Positions 1-8,139 of a stretch of 8,139 bases of DNA are shown here, in pieces (position 1 is the stretch's first letter; each line of letters opens with the position of its first letter). Location: positions 1 through 8,139 of IMG/VR virus record IMGVR_UViG_2554235185_000004; one strand, given 5' to 3'. The notes under the pieces are model-generated. The model saw only the letters and a program-made list of their open reading frames with translations. It searched no databases and was not told the origin of the DNA. This DNA comes from a virus. Taxonomy: Duplodnaviria; Heunggongvirae; Uroviricota; Caudoviricetes. Position numbers and translations under genes: made by a program.

Positions 1-722
1 GCGCAATGGTGTTGTGCTGGCACTGCGACAACCAGCTGCGCGACCAGACCTCCGAATCACTCGGGCAACTTGCTCACCAAAACCTGTCTGCATGGATGAT
101 TGACGTCATACGCCATGCAATGAATGGCTCGCAGGAACGGGAATTATCGCTGGCTGAATTATCCTGGTGGGCGGTCCGCAATCAGGTGGCGGACGCGCTA
201 CCGGAAGCGGTATTACGTCGTTCGCTGGGGTTGCGTGCGGAAAAAATCCGCTCAATGTACCGTGAAAGCGACATCGTACCGGGAGAGCAGACCGCCACCA
301 GCATACTGAAACAGCGCACAAAAAATCTTGCGCCGCTGCCTCACGCCCACCAGCAACAGAACCCACCACAGGAAAAGACGGTGGTCAGCATTGCCGTTGA
401 TCCGGAATCTCCGGCTCAGTATCTCCAGCGCCAGAAACCACAACGGGAAGAGATGCCTGTATACACGCGCTGGGTAAAAACGCAGAAATGCATGACGTGT
501 GGCAATCAGGCAGATGATCCGCATCACATCATTGGTCATGGACTGGGAGGGATGGGAACAAAGGCTGACGATTTGTTTGTTATTCCGCTGTGTCGTAAAT
601 GCCATAACGAACTACACGCCGGGGTAAAAGATTTTGAAGAAAAACACGGTAGTCAGTTGTTGTTGCTGATTCGTTTTTTAATGCACGCGAGAAATTCGGG
701 TGTTCTGAAGTGGAAAGCATAA
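1..722 (+). CDS. NinG/DUF968-like protein with a C-terminal HNH-type Cys/His (zinc-finger nuclease-like) motif; probably 5'-partial
   Basis: Reading frame is open from the window edge (first ATG at 6) to TAA at 720-722. C-terminal region has CxxC ... HH ... CxxCH ... H (CMTCGNQADDPHHIIGHG...CRKCHNELH), as in NinG/YdfU-type nin-region proteins. Sits immediately upstream of rusA, as in lambdoid nin regions. Confidence 0.6.
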   Translation, partial: AMVLCWHCDNQLRDQTSESLGQLAHQNLSAWMIDVIRHAMNGSQERELSLAELSWWAVRNQVADALPEAVLRRSLGLRAEKIRSMYRESDIVPGEQTATSILKQRTKNLAPLPHAHQQQNPPQEKTVVSIAVDPESPAQYLQRQKPQREEMPVYTRWVKTQKCMTCGNQADDPHHIIGHGLGGMGTKADDLFVIPLCRKCHNELHAGVKDFEEKHGSQLLLLIRFLMHARNSGVLKWKA

Positions 723-1091
723 ATGACCGAACGCATAGAATTTGTTTTGCCTTACTCGCCGACGGTGAACACTTACTGGCGACGCCGTGGCAGCACATAT
801 TTTGTATCAAAAGCCGGGGAGCGTTATCGCCGGGCAGTGGCGCTTATTGTTCGCCAGCAGCGACTGAAATTAAGCCTGTCCGGACGGCTGGCAATAAAAA
901 TTATTGCAGAGCCACCGGATAAGCGTCGTCGTGACCTGGACAATATTCTGAAAGCACCACTGGATGCGCTGACGCACGCGGGGTTGTTAATGGACGATGA
1001 GCAGTTTGATGAAATCAATATTGTACGTGGCCAGCCAGTATCTGGTGGACGGCTGGAGATAAGAATTACAGAGGTGGGTGTGCATGAATAA
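723..1091 (+). CDS. rusA: Crossover junction endodeoxyribonuclease RusA (Holliday junction resolvase)
   Basis: 122-aa ORF. Shares conserved blocks with remembered E. coli RusA (PDKRRRDLDNILKAPLDALTHAGLLMDDEQ and GGRLEIRITE versus [30 protein letters not shown] and GGRLELTITE). ATG directly follows the upstream stop (TAAATG), with GGAAAG upstream. Confidence 0.9.
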   Translation: MTERIEFVLPYSPTVNTYWRRRGSTYFVSKAGERYRRAVALIVRQQRLKLSLSGRLAIKIIAEPPDKRRRDLDNILKAPLDALTHAGLLMDDEQFDEINIVRGQPVSGGRLEIRITEVGVHE

Positions 1092-1773
1092 CCAGTATTT
1101 ACAGTTTGTTCGTGAGCAACTCATGATTGCCACTGCAGATCTCAGTGGGTCGACAAAATGCCAGCTGGAAGCCTGGCAGGAAAATGCCCTGTTCGATACA
1201 GGGCGTTACAGACGCAAAAAAATTCGTTACCGCGATGAGGTAACCGGAAAAATGATCACGCGGGATAATCCCCCGATCCAGGGTAAACAATCACTGGCGA
1301 AAGGCTCATCAATTGCGCTGGTCAGTCCTGTTGAGTTTGCAACATCATCGTGGCGGCGTGCTGTTCTGGAACTGGAAGAACATCAGAAGGCGTGGTTGTT
1401 GTGGTGTTATGGCGGAAACATTTGCTGGGAGCATCAGATCGCGATAACGCAGTGGGGGTGGAGTGAATTTAAAACTCAGTCCGGCTCCAGAAAAATTGCA
1501 GTGAAAACGCTGGAGCGTGTGAAGAAGTTGATCTGGCTGGCGGCACAGGATGTCAGAGGATGGGTTACCGGGTGTGAGGTCTACCAGAGACAGGAGCTTG
1601 CCAGACTGTGTGGAGTTAAGCCTGATAACTGGAGCCATAATTATGCGAACTACTGGCGTGAGATGTGCGATATTTTTAAGCGCCTCGATAGAGAATCCTT
1701 GATTTGCTCCGTGAAAATAAGAGCGCAACAAAAAGCGACCTTTTCACGACGAGATATTGCAAAAGTCAATTAA
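1084..1773 (+). CDS. Putative late-gene antitermination protein Q (assigned mainly by position)
   Basis: 229-aa ORF from ATG 1084 (GAGGTG Shine-Dalgarno at 1071-1076; an alternative GTG lies at 1078), overlapping the rusA stop. Lies between rusA and a promoter-plus-terminator pair that precedes the lysis genes. I could not match the sequence to a specific Q family by eye. Confidence 0.5.
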   Translation: MNNQYLQFVREQLMIATADLSGSTKCQLEAWQENALFDTGRYRRKKIRYRDEVTGKMITRDNPPIQGKQSLAKGSSIALVSPVEFATSSWRRAVLELEEHQKAWLLWCYGGNICWEHQIAITQWGWSEFKTQSGSRKIAVKTLERVKKLIWLAAQDVRGWVTGCEVYQRQELARLCGVKPDNWSHNYANYWREMCDIFKRLDRESLICSVKIRAQQKATFSRRDIAKVN

Positions 1774-1800
1774 ATCGCGTATGTTTCGTATAAATCTGAT
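1757..1800 (+). promoter_or_regulatory. Candidate late promoter (PR'-like) with tandem -10-like hexamers
   Basis: TTGCAA (1757-1762), 17-bp spacer, TATGTT (1780-1785), then a second -10-like TATAAA (1789-1794). Located directly after the putative Q stop and upstream of a strong terminator, as for lambda PR'/qut/tR'. Confidence 0.3.
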
Positions 1801-1834
1801 ATTTTGCCGATTTTGTACGTGATGGCAAAGTAAG

Positions 1835-1862
1835 AAAAAACCACCGCCAGGTGGTTTTTTTT
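1835..1862 (+). terminator. Intrinsic terminator (tR'-like) downstream of putative Q
   Basis: A6 then CCACC (1841-1845), loop GCCA, GGTGG (1850-1854), then T8 (1855-1862). A/T flanks make it potentially bidirectional. Confidence 0.7.
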
Positions 1863-2183
1863 ATGTCCGAAAATCGCGTCAGTACAGTAAACGCGCTGGT
1901 GGTTGCGAATACGGGTCTTTCAGCTTGCCGGCTTTTTCGACAAGAGTTATTGGTATGTCACGTTAACCGGAAAAGGGAAAAAGACATGCTAAAACAGCAG
2001 GATATGACAGAAGCCGCCAGAGTGGTGTTTAATGAATTAAGCGTTACCGACCCGGCGACAGTCAGGGAGATTGCACAGAATACTTACCTTTCACGCGAAC
2101 GCTGCCAGTTAATACTGACCCAGCTTGTTATGGCGGGTCTGGCAGACTATCAGTTTGGTTGTTACAGACACCTTCAGTCCTGA
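1863..2183 (+). CDS. Hypothetical small protein (moron candidate); alternative start ATG 1986 gives 65 aa
   Basis: ORF from ATG 1863 (106 aa), or from ATG 1986 with a purine-rich AAGGG Shine-Dalgarno. Its TGA stop is embedded in a hairpin followed by a T-run (2171-2197). No homolog recognised. Confidence 0.4.
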   Translation: MSENRVSTVNALVVANTGLSACRLFRQELLVCHVNRKREKDMLKQQDMTEAARVVFNELSVTDPATVREIAQNTYLSRERCQLILTQLVMAGLADYQFGCYRHLQS

Positions 2184-2197
2184 AGGCTTTTTTATTT
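2171..2197 (+). terminator. Intrinsic terminator at the end of the small gene
   Basis: CCTTCA (2171-2176), loop GTCC, TGAAGG (2181-2186), followed by CTTTTTTATTT. Confidence 0.55.
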
Positions 2198-2497
2198 GTG
2201 GTAAATGGGCGGCTGGTGGGTGTGGTGGTTGTTGCTTTCCCGTTGCTGAAAAAGAAAACGCCAGACTGTTAGCCGGGTATCAGTTAGCGGGAGAAATTTT
2301 TAAATACTTCACAATTCAGGCGGTTGACTGTTGTCTGGTTTGCGGGGAGTTTGTTAAAAGAAACTGGCATGGTGAATCCCCCTGTGCGGAGGGGCAATCA
2401 GCGAGTAGGTATATGGGATAATCGCGGATTCAGGTGCTGGTACTGAATTCACCGGGAGGCACCCGGCACCATGCAATGGCACATAGCGCCACTCTCC

Positions 2498-2526
2498 AGC
2501 CCCTCTCCGGAGGGGCTGTTTATATT
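2498..2526 (+). terminator. GC-rich perfect hairpin with downstream T-rich tract (terminator-like, + orientation)
   Basis: AGCCCCTC (2498-2505), loop TCCG, GAGGGGCT (2510-2517), followed by GTTTATATTGATTTTG. A smaller hairpin CCGGG/CCCGG lies at 2452-2466. Confidence 0.5.
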
Positions 2527-2552
2527 GATTTTGTCAGATGTGAGTAAACTCC

Positions 2553-2888
2553 TTATGGACTTTGTTGTTTTAGCCCATAAGGACATATTTGCAGAGTGCA
2601 ACGGTTATTAAAGCATTCATTCAATACGTTATCTGTATTTGTAGGGCATTCCTGGCTGTTTTTGATTAAATTCCAGAATGTTTTATTGAATGGTACTACG
2701 TTGTAAATGGTTACAGGTAGCACTTTGTTATTGAGCATGATACCTGTGTGAGTCAGTGTAAATATACTTTCAGGAGGTAAGAAAGCATCCGATTGATACC
2801 AGATTATTAATTTTATTTTACTCCATATGACTGAAAAAGATATTCCGCATGATGGCTGGATAACTGTATCAATCACAATCCACTTCAT
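2553..2888 (-). CDS. Hypothetical protein encoded in an AT-rich island
   Basis: 111-aa minus-strand ORF with a good Shine-Dalgarno (AAGGAAA about 4 nt upstream of ATG at 2888-2886). Lies inside a visibly AT-rich block (about 2530-3130) that contrasts with flanking phage DNA. No homolog recognised. Confidence 0.45.
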
Positions 2889-3148
2889 TTAGTTTCCTTG
2901 TTTATGCCTTGCTGGTGATGTTCTGAAAAGTATAAATGATATTTTTGATTGTAAACCATAGAGCAGAATTATTTTTCTGATGTTGTTTATTGTTTATTTA
3001 AATGCAGGGTGGTTTATATCTCGTCTTGTAGTTTATCCATGCATATCTGCTTGATGATGAGGTTTTTATTTAAGGTATGGTTTTGTGTTTTTTCTGTATT
3101 ACATGTCAGGTATTTTAAAGAATCATTTTTCAGATGGTGGAAAGAACC

Positions 3149-3337
3149 ATGGCATTTAAACACTATGATGTTGTCAGGGCGGCGTCGCCGTCAGATCTTG
3201 CGGAAAAGCTGACACATAAACTGAAAGAGGGCTGGCAGCCGTTTGGTAGTCCGGTGGCCATAACCCCTTATACCCTGATGCAGGCGATTGCAGCAGAAGG
3301 TGATGTGGTGGTCAGTGGTGCAACTGAGCCGGAGTGA
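3149..3337 (+). pseudogene. DUF1737-like small ORF, possibly the N-terminal remnant of a larger (nanS-p esterase-like) prophage gene
   Basis: 62-aa ORF from ATG 3149 (GGTGGAAAG upstream), MAFKHYDVVRAASPSDLAEKLTHKLKEGWQPFGSPVAITPYTLMQAIAAEGD. From memory this resembles the DUF1737 N-terminal domain of prophage 9-O-acetylesterase genes located before S in Stx-type phages. Downstream DNA (3337-3492) is open in other frames but not this one, consistent with a frameshifted or truncated remnant. Confidence 0.4.
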
Positions 3338-3580
3338 TACTACGTCATCGTACTGGCCCGGCATTCCAGGCCATAAAAGACGGTCTGGCAGTGGGACTAA
3401 ATGCACTGACGCTGACGGATATTACCAAAAATGCAACGTATGGCGTTGAGATAGAAAGTCTGGTGCTGGAGATAAATGCACCGGCATCATCATAAAAAGT
3501 GAGCCAGTCAAATGGAAGGTATCGTTAAACTCACCGGTAGTGTCAGTGGGTCGTCTGAGACGCCTGCATGAGTTATCAGA

Positions 3581-3612
3581 GCCATCAGTACTTAACTGGT
3601 GGCTTTTTTATT
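3581..3612 (+). terminator. Intrinsic terminator immediately upstream of the holin gene
   Basis: GCCATCAG (3581-3588), loop TACTTAA, CTGGTGGC (3596-3603; one G-U wobble), followed by TTTTTTATTG. Confidence 0.55.
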
Positions 3613-3644
3613 GTTGTCAGCTTCCGGATAACGGGAGACGGGGT

Positions 3645-3860
3645 ATGTACCAGATGGAAAAAATCACAACAGGTGTGTCATACACCACGTCAGCGGTGGG
3701 AACGGGCTACTGGTTCCTGCAGTTGCTGGACAGGGTTTCCCCGTCTCAGTGGGCGGCAATAGGCGTGCTGGGGAGTCTGCTGTTTGGGCTGCTGACATAT
3801 CTGACTAACCTGTATTTCAAAATCAAAGAGGACCGGCGTAAGGCGGCGCGGGGAGAGTAA
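3645..3860 (+). CDS. S: Class II holin, phage 21 S21-type pinholin (EssD-like), with dual-start motif
   Basis: 71 aa, [71 protein letters not shown]. Near-identical by memory to S21/EssD pinholins (two transmembrane domains, charged C-terminus). GGGAGA Shine-Dalgarno at 3633-3638. Met1 and Met4 give the dual-start arrangement. Confidence 0.9.
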
Positions 3861-3864
3861 AGTG

Positions 3865-4755
3865 ATGAATAAAAAATATGAACTGGTTGTTAAGGGGATA
3901 AATAATTACGGGGATAAGGTTACTGTTACTGTGAAGTCGGAAGGTGACGGGCAAGCGTCGCTGTTGTTGCCAGATGTGGCGATTAGTCTTGACCGTACTG
4001 AAGGTGCCACGCTGGAGTTTTACGAAGCTGAGGCGAAAAAGCAGGCGAAGCAGTTTTTCATGGATGTTGCTGCCGGGTTATGTGAATGGAACGAACCGTT
4101 GCCGGAAAAGCGCCCCGTAATTTTAGAGGCGCAGGATGTGTTGATAACCTACAAAGGAAAGCTACCGGGAAGAATTACTTGTTCTCTGAAGATGCCGCCG
4201 TCAACACTGCGGTCAGAAAAAGATGATGTTGAATCACGTATTGAAAAACTGGAGAGCTACGTCGTTGAGCTGAATAAGAAATGGTCGATATTGGTGCCTT
4301 CTGGCGATGAAAAGCAGTTTGCTGCGTTTGACGATTATTGTCGGAAAGTGATGAGCAGAAATCTCGCAGAGTGTTTCAGTATTCATAATGATAATTTCAG
4401 TGACCCGGAATGGGAGTGTAACCGGCCATCCTTTGTTGTATCCGGTGATGCTGGGAAAATAACCATCTCAGAAAATGGGAAAGTAACACCTCCATCGCAC
4501 CAGCACAGTGAGGAGCTCATTGAATTTGCCATTGATTACCTGAAGAACAATAAAAAGCAGGGGCTGATGAAGCGCGTTGGCCGTTGCATGGGATATCTTC
4601 AGGTAGCCGCTGAGATTGAAGCGCTGGCCAGTGGTGCTGATAAGGATGCAATTGTGCGGGAGGCTCTTCTTCGTGATTTTAATACTCCACCCTTTAAAAA
4701 AGTGCCGGCTTACTGGCTTCATCCGGGGCTGACTTATCTTAAAGTGCGTATTTAG
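3865..4755 (+). CDS. Hypothetical 296-aa soluble protein inserted between holin and endolysin (unknown function)
   Basis: Long ORF from ATG 3865 (GTG at 3862 also in frame), with GGGGAGAG Shine-Dalgarno lying in the 3' end of the holin gene and the start 5 nt after the holin stop (translational coupling). No signal peptide or transmembrane segment seen, and no motif I recognise. Confidence 0.75.
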   Translation: MNKKYELVVKGINNYGDKVTVTVKSEGDGQASLLLPDVAISLDRTEGATLEFYEAEAKKQAKQFFMDVAAGLCEWNEPLPEKRPVILEAQDVLITYKGKLPGRITCSLKMPPSTLRSEKDDVESRIEKLESYVVELNKKWSILVPSGDEKQFAAFDDYCRKVMSRNLAECFSIHNDNFSDPEWECNRPSFVVSGDAGKITISENGKVTPPSHQHSEELIEFAIDYLKNNKKQGLMKRVGRCMGYLQVAAEIEALASGADKDAIVREALLRDFNTPPFKKVPAYWLHPGLTYLKVRI

Positions 4756-4791
4756 TGGGCCAGGGACAGCGGCTGAATATTTAATATATCC

Positions 4792-5325
4792 ATGAACACC
4801 AAAATCAAATACGGCCTGTCGGCTGCCGTTCTGGCGCTGATTGCCGCTGGTGCGCCTGCGCCTGACATTCTCGACCAGTTTCTGGATGAAAAGGAAGGCA
4901 ACCACACCACGGCATACCGTGATGGTGCAGGTATCTGGACCATCTGCCGTGGTGCCATCATGGTGGATGGCAAACCTGTCGTTCCGGGCATGAAGTTGTC
5001 GAAGGAAAAATGCGACCAGGTTAACGCCATTGAGCGTGATAAAGCGCTGGCGTGGGTGGAGAAAAACATCAGAGTGCCGCTGACCGAACCCCAGAAAGCG
5101 GGGATCGCGTCATTCTGTCCGTACAACATTGGTCCCGGTAAGTGTTTCCCGTCGACGTTTTACAGACGAATTAATGCTGGTGATCGAAAAGGTGCCTGCG
5201 AAGCGATTCGCTGGTGGATTAAGGACGGTGGCAGAGACTGCCGTATTCGTTCAAACAACTGTTACGGTCAGGTATCCCGTCGTGACCAGGAGAGCGCGCT
5301 GGCGTGCTGGGGTATCGACAGATAA
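4792..5325 (+). CDS. R: SAR endolysin (phage lysozyme, T4/P22-type glycoside hydrolase family 24, R21-like)
   Basis: 177 aa. N-terminal Gly/Ala-rich weakly hydrophobic signal-anchor-release segment (KYGLSAAVLALIAAGAPAP). Catalytic E...D...T spacing (EGNHTTAYRDGAGIWTICRG) typical of P22/21-type lysozymes. A SAR endolysin is the expected partner of a pinholin. Confidence 0.9.
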   Translation: MNTKIKYGLSAAVLALIAAGAPAPDILDQFLDEKEGNHTTAYRDGAGIWTICRGAIMVDGKPVVPGMKLSKEKCDQVNAIERDKALAWVEKNIRVPLTEPQKAGIASFCPYNIGPGKCFPSTFYRRINAGDRKGACEAIRWWIKDGGRDCRIRSNNCYGQVSRRDQESALACWGIDR

Positions 5326-5481
5326 GCAGAATATTTTGCTGAAAAATGAGGAATGGCCACGCGGGCGGATAACACGAAATCCTGCGAACTGGCGAAACGT
5401 AAGTGAATAAAAGTAAAAACCCCGTTTGTTGGCACCAAGCGAGGTTTTGTGTTTCTGACCTTGAGTAAGGCAAGGGAGAAC

Positions 5482-5664
5482 ATGGCGAAGTGTAAACGAA
5501 TTCTGTTGAGGTTGACTATGAAAAATGGCCTTGAACTGAAAGCGCCTGTAACTGATGACATCAGCAGAGCACTGGCTTTTGCCATTAAGTGGGTGGCGGT
5601 CGGTGTTGCTGTGTCCCCGATGCTGTATGGGCTGGCAAAACTGGTCATTGCGTTGAAATCGTGA
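5482..5664 (+). CDS. Hypothetical small protein (60 aa) with hydrophobic C-terminal segment
   Basis: ATG 5482 preceded by AGGGAG (5473-5478). Sequence [60 protein letters not shown] has a basic N-terminus and a hydrophobic C-terminal stretch. Located between the endolysin and Rz. Confidence 0.4.
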
Positions 5665-5678
5665 AGGGAGGATTAAGC

Positions 5679-5810
5679 ATGTCAGACAAACTCATAACGC
5701 TGGCGAAGATCCTCTGTGTAATTGTCGGCATTTCATTTTCACTAATGCTGGTTGCTCTTTTTCTTTCCATGGCCTGGATGATGTTGTCTTCGTCGGGGTT
5801 GCTGGGGTGA
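5679..5810 (+). CDS. Hypothetical small single-pass membrane protein (43 aa)
   Basis: ATG 5679 preceded by a strong GGGAGG Shine-Dalgarno (5665-5670). [43 protein letters not shown] is almost entirely one transmembrane helix. Its TGA (5808-5810) overlaps a GTG at 5807 that begins the Rz frame (GTGA coupling). Confidence 0.45.
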
Positions 5811-6280
5811 ACATAAACCGAATGCTTTCCGCGTTTATCGTTATTCTGCTGGTGGCCTGTGGTGCGCTGTGGATGGCAACAGACCATTACCGTGATAACG
5901 CGATTACCTACAAAGCGCAGCGCGATAACAAAGCCAGTGAACTGAAGCTGGCGAACGCAACCATTACTGATATGCAGGTGCGCCAGCGCGATGTTGCTGC
6001 GCTCGATGCAAAATACTCGAGGGAATTAGCCGATGCGAGAGCTGAAAATGAAACTCTTCGCGCTGACGTTGCCGCTGGTCGTAAGCGCCTGCGGATCAAC
6101 GCCACCTGTCCAGGCTCCGTGCGTGAAGCCCCCACCACCTCCGGCGTGGATAATGCAACCGGCCCCCAACTGGCAGACACCGTTACACGGGATTATTTCA
6201 CCCTCAGAGAGCGGCTGATGACGATGCACAAGCAACTGGAAGGGGCACAGGACTATATCCGCACTCAGTGCCTGAAATAA
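5807..6280 (+). CDS. Rz: Rz, inner-membrane spanin subunit (i-spanin)
   Basis: Strong similarity by memory to RzpD (shared [44 protein letters not shown]). N-terminal transmembrane segment followed by a coiled-coil-like periplasmic domain. Start could be GTG 5807 or ATG 5822. Confidence 0.88.
6033..6218 (+). CDS. Rz1: Rz1, outer-membrane lipoprotein spanin subunit (o-spanin), embedded in the +1 frame of Rz
   Basis: 61-aa ORF wholly inside Rz in another frame. Lipobox VVSAC, then a proline-rich mature region with [14 protein letters not shown], as in RzoD/Rz1. Alternative start at ATG 6048. Confidence 0.85.
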
Positions 6281-6590
6281 GTTTTGTTGATGCGCCGTAT
6301 CGTCGCTATATTCCCTCATTAACAGAGACCGCAGCCCGACAGGGAGACTCCTCTGCGCGAGTGTGCGGGGATAATTAAAAACGATGCACACCGGGTTTTT
6401 ACCGCGTTAATGATTCGCGGGTTTATCCCGGTGCGATGGTGGAAGAAACAGGAAGCTGTATTACAGAAAGTGCTACTACTGTATCCCGATGCGATGTATG
6501 TAATGTGAGTCAGATAATGGCACAGGATGTGGTGATGTGGCAGTCTGGAACACAGGATATATTGTCAGAATAAGACCCGTAGGAATAAAA

Positions 6591-6917
6591 ATGAAAAGAC
6601 GCCTTTTACTACTTTTTCTGTTATCTGTCCTGGCAGTGGGATGCTCGCAGCAAAAAGCTGATGAGCCCCGGCAATTAGTGACGGTGTATCCACGATATCC
6701 GGAATATGCTGCAGCAAATTATATCAAGGGGCTGGTTGAGGTTAAGTTCGATATTGGTGCTGATGGGACTGTGACACGGATCGTTTTTCTCCGCTCAGAG
6801 CCTCATAATTTGTTTCGTGATGAAGTGGTGAAGGCCATGGCGAAATGGCGATTTGAAAAGAATCGCCCCTGTCAGGGAGTGAAGAGACAATTTATCTTTA
6901 CGCCGTCACGTCCTTGA
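6591..6917 (+). CDS. Lipoprotein with TonB C-terminal-like domain (moron)
   Basis: ATG 6591 with AGGAA Shine-Dalgarno. Signal peptide plus lipobox (MKRRLLLLFLLSVLAVGC, Ser at +2). Mature region PRYPEYAAANYIKGLVEVKFDIGADGTVTRIVFLRSEPHNLFRDEVVKAMAKWRFE aligns by eye with the E. coli TonB C-terminal domain [56 protein letters not shown]. Preceded by about 310 bp of non-coding DNA. Confidence 0.75.
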   Translation: MKRRLLLLFLLSVLAVGCSQQKADEPRQLVTVYPRYPEYAAANYIKGLVEVKFDIGADGTVTRIVFLRSEPHNLFRDEVVKAMAKWRFEKNRPCQGVKRQFIFTPSRP

Positions 6918-7008
6918 TGCTTCCAGGTAGAGAGGGGCTGGACGCAGGAGAAAAATGAAAGAGCCAGCGGTTATATTTTTGTCATGGCTGACGAGGAATG
7001 ATGGAAGA

Positions 7009-7058
7009 AGGCGTTGTATGCCACACAACGCCTCACTGTTCATTTCTTCTTTTTCTCT
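7009..7058. terminator. Hairpin between convergent genes (possible bidirectional terminator)
   Basis: AGGCGTTGT (7009-7017), loop ATGCCAC, ACAACGCCT (7025-7033), a perfect 9-bp stem. T-rich tract TTCATTTCTTCTTTTTCTC follows on the + strand after a short spacer; the U-tract on the minus side is weaker. The T-rich tract overlaps the last codons and stop (7040-7042) of the minus-strand ORF. Confidence 0.4.
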
Positions 7059-7219
7059 GGTGGAACCCGATGAATAAGAGTTGCACTGGTTTCCGATGAG
7101 ATGGCGATATACTCGGGCAAAGTATGCTGGCAGTTTTCCAACTGGTCAAAAATACCTGCTCTCGTCTGTTGCAATGCCTGCAGCATGCGGCGGCAATGCG
7201 CCTTGCTTTTACTAACCAT
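7040..7219 (-). CDS. Hypothetical small protein (59 aa; the longer 117-aa frame to 7393 is less likely)
   Basis: Internal ATG at 7219 is preceded on the minus strand by a strong GAGGAAGGAAAG Shine-Dalgarno. The extension up to 7393 is proline-rich and overlaps the upstream gene in another frame. Product MVSKSKAHCRRMLQALQQTRAGIFDQLENCQHTLPEYIAISSETSATLIHRVPPEKKKK is not recognised. Confidence 0.35.
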   Translation of the reverse strand: MVSKSKAHCRRMLQALQQTRAGIFDQLENCQHTLPEYIAISSETSATLIHRVPPEKKKK

Positions 7220-7280
7220 CTTTCCTTCCTCTATCAGTCGCTGCGTGAACTCATCATGTAATACCAGGTAAATGCGGATG

Positions 7281-7532
7281 TTATCGGTTTTGGCTACGCA
7301 GCATAGTACAAAACGGACAGGTGCATCCCGGGACGGGGGAGGCGTCACATGTCCCTGTGATGGTTGTTCCGGGTAATGCACTGTGTGGGGCATAAAAATG
7401 TCCGATAATTTTACTTTCTACCGCAGTTAGTTGATTCGTTGGTCCTGGTAGCACATTGGGCGAGGATTTAAATGCCAGGCAACTGAAGGATGATGTTGCA
7501 AGGGAGATAGCGAGAATATTTCTGATTTTCAT
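7281..7532 (-). CDS. Small secreted, cysteine-rich protein or lipoprotein (signal peptide MKIRNILAISLATSSFSC), Bor-position moron
   Basis: Minus-strand ATG at 7532 with a GAGG-containing Shine-Dalgarno. Classic N-terminal signal peptide with a possible lipobox (SSFSC) or signal peptidase I site. Mature part has 5 Cys (TGTCDASPVPGCTCPFC). Same location and orientation as lambda bor, but not Bor-like by sequence. Confidence 0.5.
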   Translation of the reverse strand: MKIRNILAISLATSSFSCLAFKSSPNVLPGPTNQLTAVESKIIGHFYAPHSALPGTTITGTCDASPVPGCTCPFCTMLRSQNR

Positions 7533-7668
7533 TTGATGATGCCTCTGTGTGAAATGACGGTAAACGACGCACTTGTGCCGGCACATAATAGCAAGCACCA
7601 TAATAGATCAGATTCGATTCTTGCTGTAAGTGATAATTATTCTCGTTTTCGGGTCCTTTCCGTCGATC

Positions 7669-7704
7669 CAACAGGTTACGGGGCGGCGACCTCGCGGGTT
7701 TTCG
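7669..7704. other. cos: cosN, cohesive-end site (12-nt cohesive end GGGCGGCGACCT at 7681-7692)
   Basis: CGATCCAACAGGTTACG|GGGCGGCGACCTCGCGGGTTTTCGCTATTTATGAAAATTTTCCGG matches the joined right and left ends of the lambda genome almost base for base (from memory). Lies about 180 bp upstream of nu1. Confidence 0.85.
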
Positions 7705-7728
7705 CTATTTATGAAAATTTTCCGGGGA

Positions 7729-7845
7729 AAATCATGTCGGTACTTCTCGAACATAACTATTTGTTTTTTCTAATATCGAATCCGTAAAAGGTCCGACATG
7801 AAAACGCCTAAAAAAGTCATTTTCGGGCACTTTCATGTCGGCCCC
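7729..7845. promoter_or_regulatory. cosB-like region with three copies of a TCATGTCGG element (candidate Nu1 R sites)
   Basis: CATGTCGG at 7733-7740 (+) and 7834-7841 (+), and its inverse CCGACATG at 7793-7800, with AT-rich spacers. Position between cosN and nu1 matches lambda cosB, but the sequence differs from lambda here. Confidence 0.45.
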
Positions 7846-7867
7846 TGTATTTATTGTGAGACTGTTT

Positions 7868-8139
7868 CATGAAGGTTAATAAAAAGAAACTTGCCGAAAT
7901 TTTCAACGTGGATCCGCGAACGATTGAACGCTGGCAGTCTCAGGGACTCCCTTGCGTCTCCGGAGGTGGTAAGGGCGTTGAATCTGTATTTGATACCGCC
8001 ATGGCAATTCAGTGGTATGCGCAGAGGGAAGCTGATATCGAAAATGAAAAACTCCGTAAAGAGGTTGAGGATTACAGGGCTGCCAGTGAGGCAGATCTCC
8101 AGCCTGGGACTATTGAGTACGAACGCCATCGACTTACGC
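7868..8139 (+). CDS. nu1: Terminase small subunit Nu1 (gp1), 5' portion; continues beyond the window
   Basis: ATG 7868, open to the window end. [90 protein letters not shown] closely parallels lambda Nu1 (MEVNKKQLADIF...GGGKG...[33 protein letters not shown]), with a diverged helix-turn-helix segment. Confidence 0.9.

Follow-up and report, generated by a model that had tools for sequence, protein, structure and literature searches.

Conserved genes for two small predicted inner-membrane proteins at the endolysin-Rz junction of a lambdoid Escherichia coli prophage

The window analysed here is a stretch of 8,139 nucleotides from a tailed phage (Caudoviricetes; positions 1 to 8,139 of IMG/VR record IMGVR_UViG_2554235185_000004), which represents the late region of a lambdoid Escherichia coli prophage. 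Between the genes for the endolysin, a lysozyme of the signal-anchor-release (SAR) type, and the inner-membrane spanin Rz, the window contains two short open reading frames (ORFs) of 60 and 43 amino acids (aa), designated ORF60 and ORF43. ORF60 and ORF43 are genuine, conserved genes under purifying selection. Their sequence features and genomic placement indicate that they are portable late-operon genes for small inner-membrane accessory proteins. Together with a hairpin on their 5' side, the two genes would constitute a portable accessory unit lodged at the endolysin-spanin junction. We tentatively favor, while recognizing that the balance of probability is still somewhat against it, a reading in which ORF60 and ORF43 are genes of the Q-dependent late operon, and their products act in the inner membrane as non-essential modulators of the final step of lysis, the disruption of the envelope. 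The endolysin gene ends at position 5325, and the gap to Rz is 481 bp if Rz starts at GTG 5807 and 496 bp if it starts at ATG 5822. An earlier sequence-only reading of the window had noticed two small membrane-type ORFs with Shine-Dalgarno sites in this gap of about 480 bp; both are present, with starts one base away from the positions that it implied. The elements of the unit are as follows:

5416..5456, plus strand: terminator-like hairpin (5416-5448; AAAACCCCG...CGAGGTTTT) with a U-rich tract, from a terminator scan
5473..5478, plus strand: Shine-Dalgarno-like AGGGAG of ORF60, read from the sequence, 3 nt before the ATG
5482..5664, plus strand: ORF60, 60-aa mini-protein (phrog_1115, E 3.7e-42; WP_001446668.1 in the Prokaryotic Genome Annotation Pipeline, PGAP)
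5666..5671, plus strand: Shine-Dalgarno GGGAGG of ORF43, read from the sequence, 7 nt before the ATG and overlapping the ORF60 stop
5679..5810, plus strand: ORF43, 43-aa membrane mini-protein (phrog_4906, E 2.1e-23; PGAP WP_001280932.1)

The ratio of non-synonymous to synonymous substitution rates (dN/dS), calculated by the pooled Nei-Gojobori method on unique DNA sequences from IMG/VR loci, is 0.17 for the conserved 48-codon core of ORF60 and 0.26 for all sequences of ORF43. A comparison between the 43- and 44-codon lineages of ORF43, which differ at 38 of 129 bases, gives 0.28; the shifted sense frames have values ranging from 0.5 to 14. The variable sites at the first, second, and third codon positions number 15, 4, and 30 in ORF60, and 10, 5, and 12 as well as 10, 3, and 15 in the two lineages of ORF43, with the second position being the least variable in each case. 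In a different cassette with about 75% DNA identity, the ORFs retain their lengths and frames. An open antisense frame, which has its third positions in common with the genes, also looks constrained: its dN/dS is 0.37 opposite ORF60 and 0.30 opposite ORF43. The sense strand is nevertheless assigned to ORF43 because its Shine-Dalgarno sequence, start, and stop are conserved, the variability of its second codon positions is low, no antisense start is conserved, and a homologue has a ribosome profiling (RIBOseq) signal. Two antisense ORFs, 5268-5648 and 5645-5887 on the minus strand, were considered as true genes and rejected: they have no family matches, their starts are not conserved, and their second codon positions would vary more than the first.

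Among 5426 complete E. coli genomes, 2120 (about 39%) contain some of the 485-bp region that separates the endolysin and Rz genes, and 989 contain at least 80% of it; the exact ORF60 and ORF43 proteins each occur on at least 1000 contigs. Among 5.8 billion clustered proteins, ORF60 has 122 homologue clusters from E. coli, E. marmotae, and Salmonella, and ORF43 has 129 from E. coli; all of them are hypothetical proteins. The family of ORF60 is narrow, because its profile recovered only 17 clusters, some ending in RWW, from 1.8 billion representative proteins; the alignment of distant family members was too divergent to seed a scan. The PHROGs matches span residues 1-60 of ORF60 and 1-43 of ORF43, and the function of both families is unknown. 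Neither ORF matched a family in Pfam, NCBIfam, PADLOC, or the sequences of the PDB; the sole Pfam match of ORF43 is to DUF3930 and, at 13.2 bits, falls short of the cutoff of 25. The sequence-only reading had supposed that annotation usually misses ORFs like these. Both genes are already catalogued as hypothetical proteins in RefSeq, through PGAP, and as families in PHROGs; however, many GenBank phage records omit the ORF43 homologue, which is present in 276 phage records, mostly of Shiga toxin (Stx) phages, and also omit a 45-aa ORF described below. No paper in the literature collection that was searched mentions either peptide sequence or WP accession.

Evidence of translation comes from a homologue of ORF43. 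A translatome of E. coli O157 Sakai grown in lysogeny broth (LB) includes the predicted inner-membrane protein XECs191 (MMGWLMISDKLITLVKSLCVLVGISFLVMLVAIFFSTAWRVLTLSGLVG), with 12.6 reads per kilobase per million (RPKM), a ribosomal coverage value of 0.43, and a coverage of 0.55 (Hücker et al. 2017, PMC5597208). The 147-nt ORF of XECs191 matches ECs_1966 in length and sequence, save one extra N-terminal methionine in the published listing, and ECs_1966 is positioned between the antirepressor gene and Rz in Sakai prophage Sp10. Thus, both of the checks that the sequence-only reading had named, coding conservation in relatives and, for a homologue of ORF43, a translation signal, returned positive results.

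ORF60 has the basic N-terminus and hydrophobic C-terminus that had been ascribed to it: eight lysine or arginine residues precede the hydrophobic stretch 38-56, and one follows it. The helix is moderately hydrophobic and rich in glycine, alanine, and serine, with a Kyte-Doolittle mean of 1.88, compared to 1.70 for the helix of the holin encoded in the window. The conserved core comprises the last 48 aa, from M13, and an acidic juxtamembrane motif (TDD or TDE) is conserved. An AlphaFold model of ORF60 contains helices 2-15 and 23-59, with a mean pLDDT of 76. The protein is predicted to begin with a short amphipathic helix of cationic character, to continue with an acidic stretch next to the membrane, and to end in a C-terminal anchor that leaves only about three residues outside. 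The putative transmembrane domain (TMD) of ORF43 spans approximately residues 11-36, and the Kyte-Doolittle mean reaches 2.89 in the most hydrophobic 19-residue window; two lysine or arginine residues precede the helix and none follow it. Because of this distribution of basic residues and the positive-inside rule, both proteins are predicted to be oriented with their N-termini in the cytoplasm (N-in), ORF60 as a single-pass inner-membrane protein with a C-terminal anchor and ORF43 as a single-pass inner-membrane protein whose short tail, about 8-14 residues long, is in the periplasm. A natural fusion of ORF60 and ORF43 (P0039) was predicted by AlphaFold to form two long helices, in a model that is uninformative on their packing (pTM 0.46).

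The hairpin is the 5' boundary of the ORF60 unit. Together with its U-rich tract, it precedes the ORF60 Shine-Dalgarno sequence by about 25 nt, and in all 42 distinct upstream sequences the homology begins at the hairpin regardless of what is further upstream. The outer stem of 9-10 base pairs is invariant, and the inner stem varies among lineages yet remains paired. The predicted folding energies of the hairpins of relatives are -19 to -23 kcal/mol, with z-scores from -3.3 to -4.9; the copy in the window is weakened by a C.A mismatch and folds at -12 kcal/mol. The Shine-Dalgarno sequence and ATG of ORF60 downstream of the hairpin are conserved, the former as AAGGGAG or AAAGGAG in relatives. 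Simple scans, which a weak element could escape, detected no sigma-70-like promoter site on either strand between 4700 and 6600 and no Rfam match at E <= 1 in 5326-5810. Because no promoter-like site of their own was found, we infer that ORF60 and ORF43 are expressed from the Q-antiterminated late transcript, in which case their products would appear at the same time as the lysis proteins. A regulatory RNA was also considered for the endolysin-Rz gap and rejected, as there is no Rfam match there.

The neighbors of the unit in the lysis cassette of the window are as follows:

3645..3860, plus strand: P21-type class II holin, 71 aa (Pfam Phage_holin_2_1, E 2e-32; called by PGAP as a 216-nt class II holin gene)
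4792..5325, plus strand: SAR-type phage lysozyme, endolysin R (Pfam Phage_lysozyme, E 2.4e-24)
5807..6280 from the GTG, or from ATG 5822 according to PGAP, plus strand: Rz i-spanin (Pfam Phage_lysis, E 2e-47)
6033..6218, plus strand: Rz1 o-spanin lipoprotein, embedded in Rz (Pfam Rz1, E 4.4e-20)

The stop codon of ORF43, TGA 5808-5810, overlaps GTG 5807-5809, which bears out the earlier description of a 43-aa single-helix ORF with a GGGAGG site whose end overlaps the start of Rz. When the junction is compared across loci, the window has ATA AAC CGA, with the ATA at 5813-5815, in place of the usual start of Rz, ATG AAC CGT (MNR...); the lineage carrying this ATA is very common. The ancestral ATG of Rz has been lost; therefore, Rz starts either at GTG 5807 or, as annotated by PGAP, at ATG 5822. 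Rz translated from GTG 5807 begins MNINRML... and keeps the N-terminal arginine, which is lost if translation starts at ATG 5822. Because of the GTGA overlap and the mutated ancestral ATG, the translation of Rz is probably coupled to that of ORF43 in the lineage of the window. The possibility that ORF43 is a duplicated TMD of Rz was discarded, since the alignments are no better than those of composition-preserving shuffles (22 to 1771 of 2000 scored as high).

The unit is not tied to one type of lysis cassette. It follows five types of endolysins: the SAR lysozyme in the window, GH108 enzymes (loci L165 and L173), an M15 peptidase (phage phiSTEC1575-Stx2k), a GH19-like enzyme (L231), and a second type of lysozyme (L228 and L161). 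The holin partners are the P21-type class II holin in the window and Phage_holin_8 together with Phage_holin_3_7 in the GH108 cassettes. The next gene, which is Rz or encodes a lipoprotein of 56-60 aa, overlaps the unit or begins 1-7 nt after it. Rz is the next gene in the window, whereas in the cassettes with GH108, M15, and GH19-like endolysins it is the small lipoprotein gene. In the GH108 cassettes, the endolysin gene is followed by ORF60, a 44-aa homologue of ORF43, and a 60-aa lipoprotein of phrog_7528, not by Rz. In phiSTEC1575-Stx2k, a 57-aa protein of the ORF60 family is encoded after the M15 endolysin, with a 1-nt gap to a lipoprotein of the phrog_7528 type, and the complete genome of this phage contains no homologue of Rz or Rz1. 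The 933W-like Stx phages carry ORF43 alone, between ant and Rz, whereas PhiR5_2 and PhiR12 are examples that carry both genes. Distant members of the ORF60 family were found after another SAR lysozyme upstream of Rz, with a methylase gene inserted between (L228), and after the GH19-like endolysin directly before a different lipoprotein of 56 aa (L231). The constraint on ORF43 appears to differ between these contexts, with a dN/dS of 0.10 before the lipoprotein and 0.44 before Rz in small samples, whereas that of ORF60 is 0.16-0.20 in both.

The lipoproteins of 56-60 aa belong to two unrelated families encoded directly after genes of the ORF60 family or ORF43 (L165:3341-3523; L220:2655-2837; L231:3129-3299), and the phrog_7528 lipoprotein has the sequence pattern MxRKHWTHR...LVGCVSLDKARQLFDTASQVCEIVDGVRQCMQN. 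In cassettes that lack Rz and Rz1, the small lipoproteins may serve as an alternative outer-membrane disruption factor. By extension, the small lipoprotein and a member of the ORF60 family, in some cases joined by ORF43, might make up a compact and so far undescribed module for envelope disruption that replaces Rz/Rz1 in phages with no recognisable spanin, in which case the copies in the window would be the inner-membrane half kept beside a conventional spanin. This is permitted by the data because the lipoprotein and Rz are mutually exclusive (none of the 43 loci carrying the lipoprotein contains an Rz motif), because two unrelated lipoproteins share the position after an ORF60-family gene, and because the constraint on ORF43 is strongest where the lipoprotein gene follows; however, we consider such a module improbable. 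ORF43 resembles Rz-type i-spanins in its N-terminal TMD and its predicted orientation, with the N-terminus inside and the C-terminus outside, and its position directly upstream of the lipoprotein gene in some cassettes would correspond to the arrangement of a two-component spanin with separate genes. Unlike an i-spanin, ORF43 has a periplasmic part of at most about 14 residues, no coiled-coil, and no match to Phage_lysis.

The proposed role in the final envelope stage of lysis is based on the constant position of the unit, last before the outer-membrane gene and tightly packed against it. ORF60 and ORF43 would act alongside the product of the following gene, Rz/Rz1 or the small lipoprotein, and not with one particular holin or endolysin. 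The same position and packing before Rz favor a role of ORF43 translation in Rz expression in the lineage of the window. Several observations weigh against the lysis-stage role. The holins, endolysins, and outer-membrane genes that co-occur with the unit are unrelated, so that no specific partner can be named, and the presence, copy number, and order of the ORFs vary, with fragments and fusions among them, which fits dispensable cargo. Distant members of the ORF60 family are encoded outside lysis cassettes, after tail-fibre genes in Lelliottia (L226 and L227) and between tail genes (L229). The 45-aa ORF found in the endolysin-Rz gaps of related phages has a relative not in a lysis cassette but among small genes in the tail-gene region of Pseudomonas phage YMC11/02/R656 (L224:2498-2644), a hypothetical protein of 48 aa with 50% identity (E 7e-7). 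The dN/dS values do not separate the sense frame of ORF43 (0.26) from its antisense frame (0.30). Furthermore, XECs191 gave a weak RIBOseq signal in a culture that had not been induced, and multi-copy prophages may confound it.

Some of these observations would be expected if the ORFs were moron-type cargo unrelated to lysis, encoding host-protecting or host-modifying inner-membrane proteins, for example for superinfection exclusion, at a permissive module junction. This alternative explains the data nearly as well as the late-lysis role, and we regard it as a realistic, although doubtful, possibility. The unit is portable and variably present, and the junction also accepts ant, an insertion sequence (IS) element, and a methylase gene. 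The family members in tail regions, including the relative in the Pseudomonas phage, and the RNA and ribosome signal of the ORF43 homologue in uninduced Sakai point in the same direction, and exclusion proteins are known at such sites (bioRxiv 10.1101/2024.03.05.583538). As in morons of the HK97 gp15 type, to which the ORFs are not known to be homologous, the products are small inner-membrane proteins variably present at module junctions of late operons. Unlike in such morons, the terminator-like hairpin is on the upstream and not the downstream side, and the scan revealed no promoter. HK97 gp15 confers superinfection exclusion by blocking DNA entry. The absence of a promoter-like site in 4700-6600 and the hairpin immediately upstream, which should block read-through in the lysogen, speak against moron-type cargo, as do the lack of a PADLOC match and the occurrence of ORF43 only directly before Rz or the small lipoprotein gene; the signal from the uninduced culture could stem from spontaneously induced cells.

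The sequence-only reading had suggested that the peptides are antiholins or regulators of lysis timing, which would interact with the holin inside the membrane so that its triggering is delayed or made sharper. They are indeed small membrane proteins inside a lysis cassette, presumably co-expressed with the holin, and the hydrophobicity of the ORF60 helix is close to that of the holin helix. However, ORF60 and ORF43 accompany unrelated holin families and five types of endolysins, and neither the holin families of Pfam (E <= 0.1) nor the PHROGs in the category 'lysis' gave a match. To our knowledge, the antiholins described so far are holin-specific. The N-terminus of the holin in the window, MYQMEK (3645-3656), is a dual-start motif resembling that of phage 21 S71/S68, so the cassette probably already encodes an antiholin of its own. 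Because the partners vary and the holin gene has a dual-start motif, a specific antiholin role is unlikely. The antiholins and accessory proteins phage 21 S71, lambda S107, P1 LydB, and P2 LysA are likewise small membrane proteins of lysis cassettes beyond the core scheme; however, they have no sequence or profile similarity to ORF60 or ORF43. The earlier comparison with P2 LysA applies to the gene position after the endolysin, and it fails in size and number of TMDs: LysA has about 140 aa and several TMDs, whereas ORF60 and ORF43 have one hydrophobic segment each. Taken as a whole, the earlier functional proposal is partly plausible, and the proteins are best filed as uncharacterised accessory small membrane proteins of phage late or lysis operons.

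The remaining explanations are less likely than either a late-lysis role or moron-type cargo. ORF60 could be a releasin-like, membrane-tethered cytoplasmic peptide that helps the SAR endolysin to leave the membrane, as Mu gp25 does, since its gene comes immediately after that of a SAR endolysin whose N-terminus carries K4 and K6, and since it has the conserved acidic juxtamembrane motif. Mu gp25 (DUF2730) may be regarded as the closest functional analogue of ORF60: both are small, membrane-tethered, encoded a few genes downstream of the endolysin (within five genes for the relatives of gp25), distinct from the holin, and found with SAR as well as cytoplasmic endolysins (PMC9239132). However, gp25 has 99 aa, an N-out/C-in orientation, and an anionic cytoplasmic domain of 73 aa (PMC9239132), whereas ORF60 has 60 aa, a predicted N-in orientation opposite to that of gp25, a cationic N-terminus that renders its cytoplasmic part net cationic, a C-terminal anchor, and no match to DUF2730. 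Moreover, the cassette in the window has a pinholin and should not need a releasin. We consider this role very improbable. The ORFs could instead be functionless relics, as recombination scars with ORF43 retained only for the translation of Rz, or peptides similar to type I toxins, the latter having also been raised by the sequence-only reading. Frequent fragments, fusions, and frameshifted copies, the loss of the Rz ATG in the lineage of the window, and the lower constraint on ORF43 before Rz (0.44) are consistent with relics; however, the purifying selection on ORF60 in both contexts (0.16-0.20), the value of 0.10 for ORF43 in the lipoprotein context, where it does not overlap the next start, and the persistence of both families across species and cassette types argue for function. 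ORF60 and ORF43 resemble the type I toxins Hok and TisB in their size, single hydrophobic helix, and presence in a prophage, but the region yielded no promoter-like site, no Rfam match, and no antisense RNA, and the genes are co-directional and tightly packed in an operon. There is thus little to recommend either the relic or the toxin explanation.

If ORF60 and ORF43 tune late lysis, or if ORF43 couples the translation of Rz, they would add a component to the lysis pathway, which is usually described in terms of holin, endolysin, and spanin; at least some of the region occurs in more than a third of the complete E. coli genomes. Should they be exclusion factors instead, they would constitute a widespread prophage defence. 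In Stx phages, the operon containing the ORF43 homologue governs, by way of lysis, the release of the toxin. The cassettes with small lipoproteins offer a way into how spanin-less phages breach the outer membrane.

In related prophages, the endolysin-Rz gap is occupied by between one and four different small ORFs, each with a single TMD, whose order varies (L207:600-1095; L154:2935-3033; L006:3656-3830; L221:2063-2625), along with frameshifted remnants and fusion ORFs. Several of the gap ORFs end in RWW, where TGGTGGTGA forms the ribosome-binding region of Rz. The 45-aa ORF of the RWW type is present in H-19B, Stx2c phages, and Salmonella phage FSL SP-016. The K-12 prophages DLP12 and Qin have no such ORFs at their endolysin-Rz junctions.

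The other genes of the window are as follows:

First genes in window order, before STnc100: DUF968/NinG-like gene, RusA, and antiterminator Q
2338-2527, plus strand: small RNA (sRNA) STnc100 (RF02076), full-length match, 132 bits
2553-2888, minus strand: anti-adapter gene iraM, adjoining STnc100, between Q and the holin
3862-4755, plus strand: DUF1327/YdfR-like ORF, 297 aa (phrog_1085, E 3e-190), between the holin and the endolysin
6537-6917 (PGAP start equivalent 6591), downstream of Rz: lipoprotein with a TonB C-terminal domain, lipobox LAVGC

The counterpart of the DUF1327/YdfR-like ORF in strain 7/2 is annotated by PGAP as an incomplete pseudogene of the YdfR family. The N-terminus of the endolysin, LSAAVLALIAAGAPAP, has weak hydrophobicity after K4 and K6. 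The TonB-domain lipoprotein occupies the place of lambda bor, and the name 'Rz-like spanin' given by PHROGs to its family, phrog_1267, is an apparent mislabel. The approximately 60 bp after the endolysin stop (5326-5385; GCAGAATATTTTGCTGAAAAATGA...) recur with about 78-81% identity at L165:3536-3595, right after the gene for the 60-aa lipoprotein in GH108 cassettes. It is possible that this stretch is a recombination linker at module boundaries.

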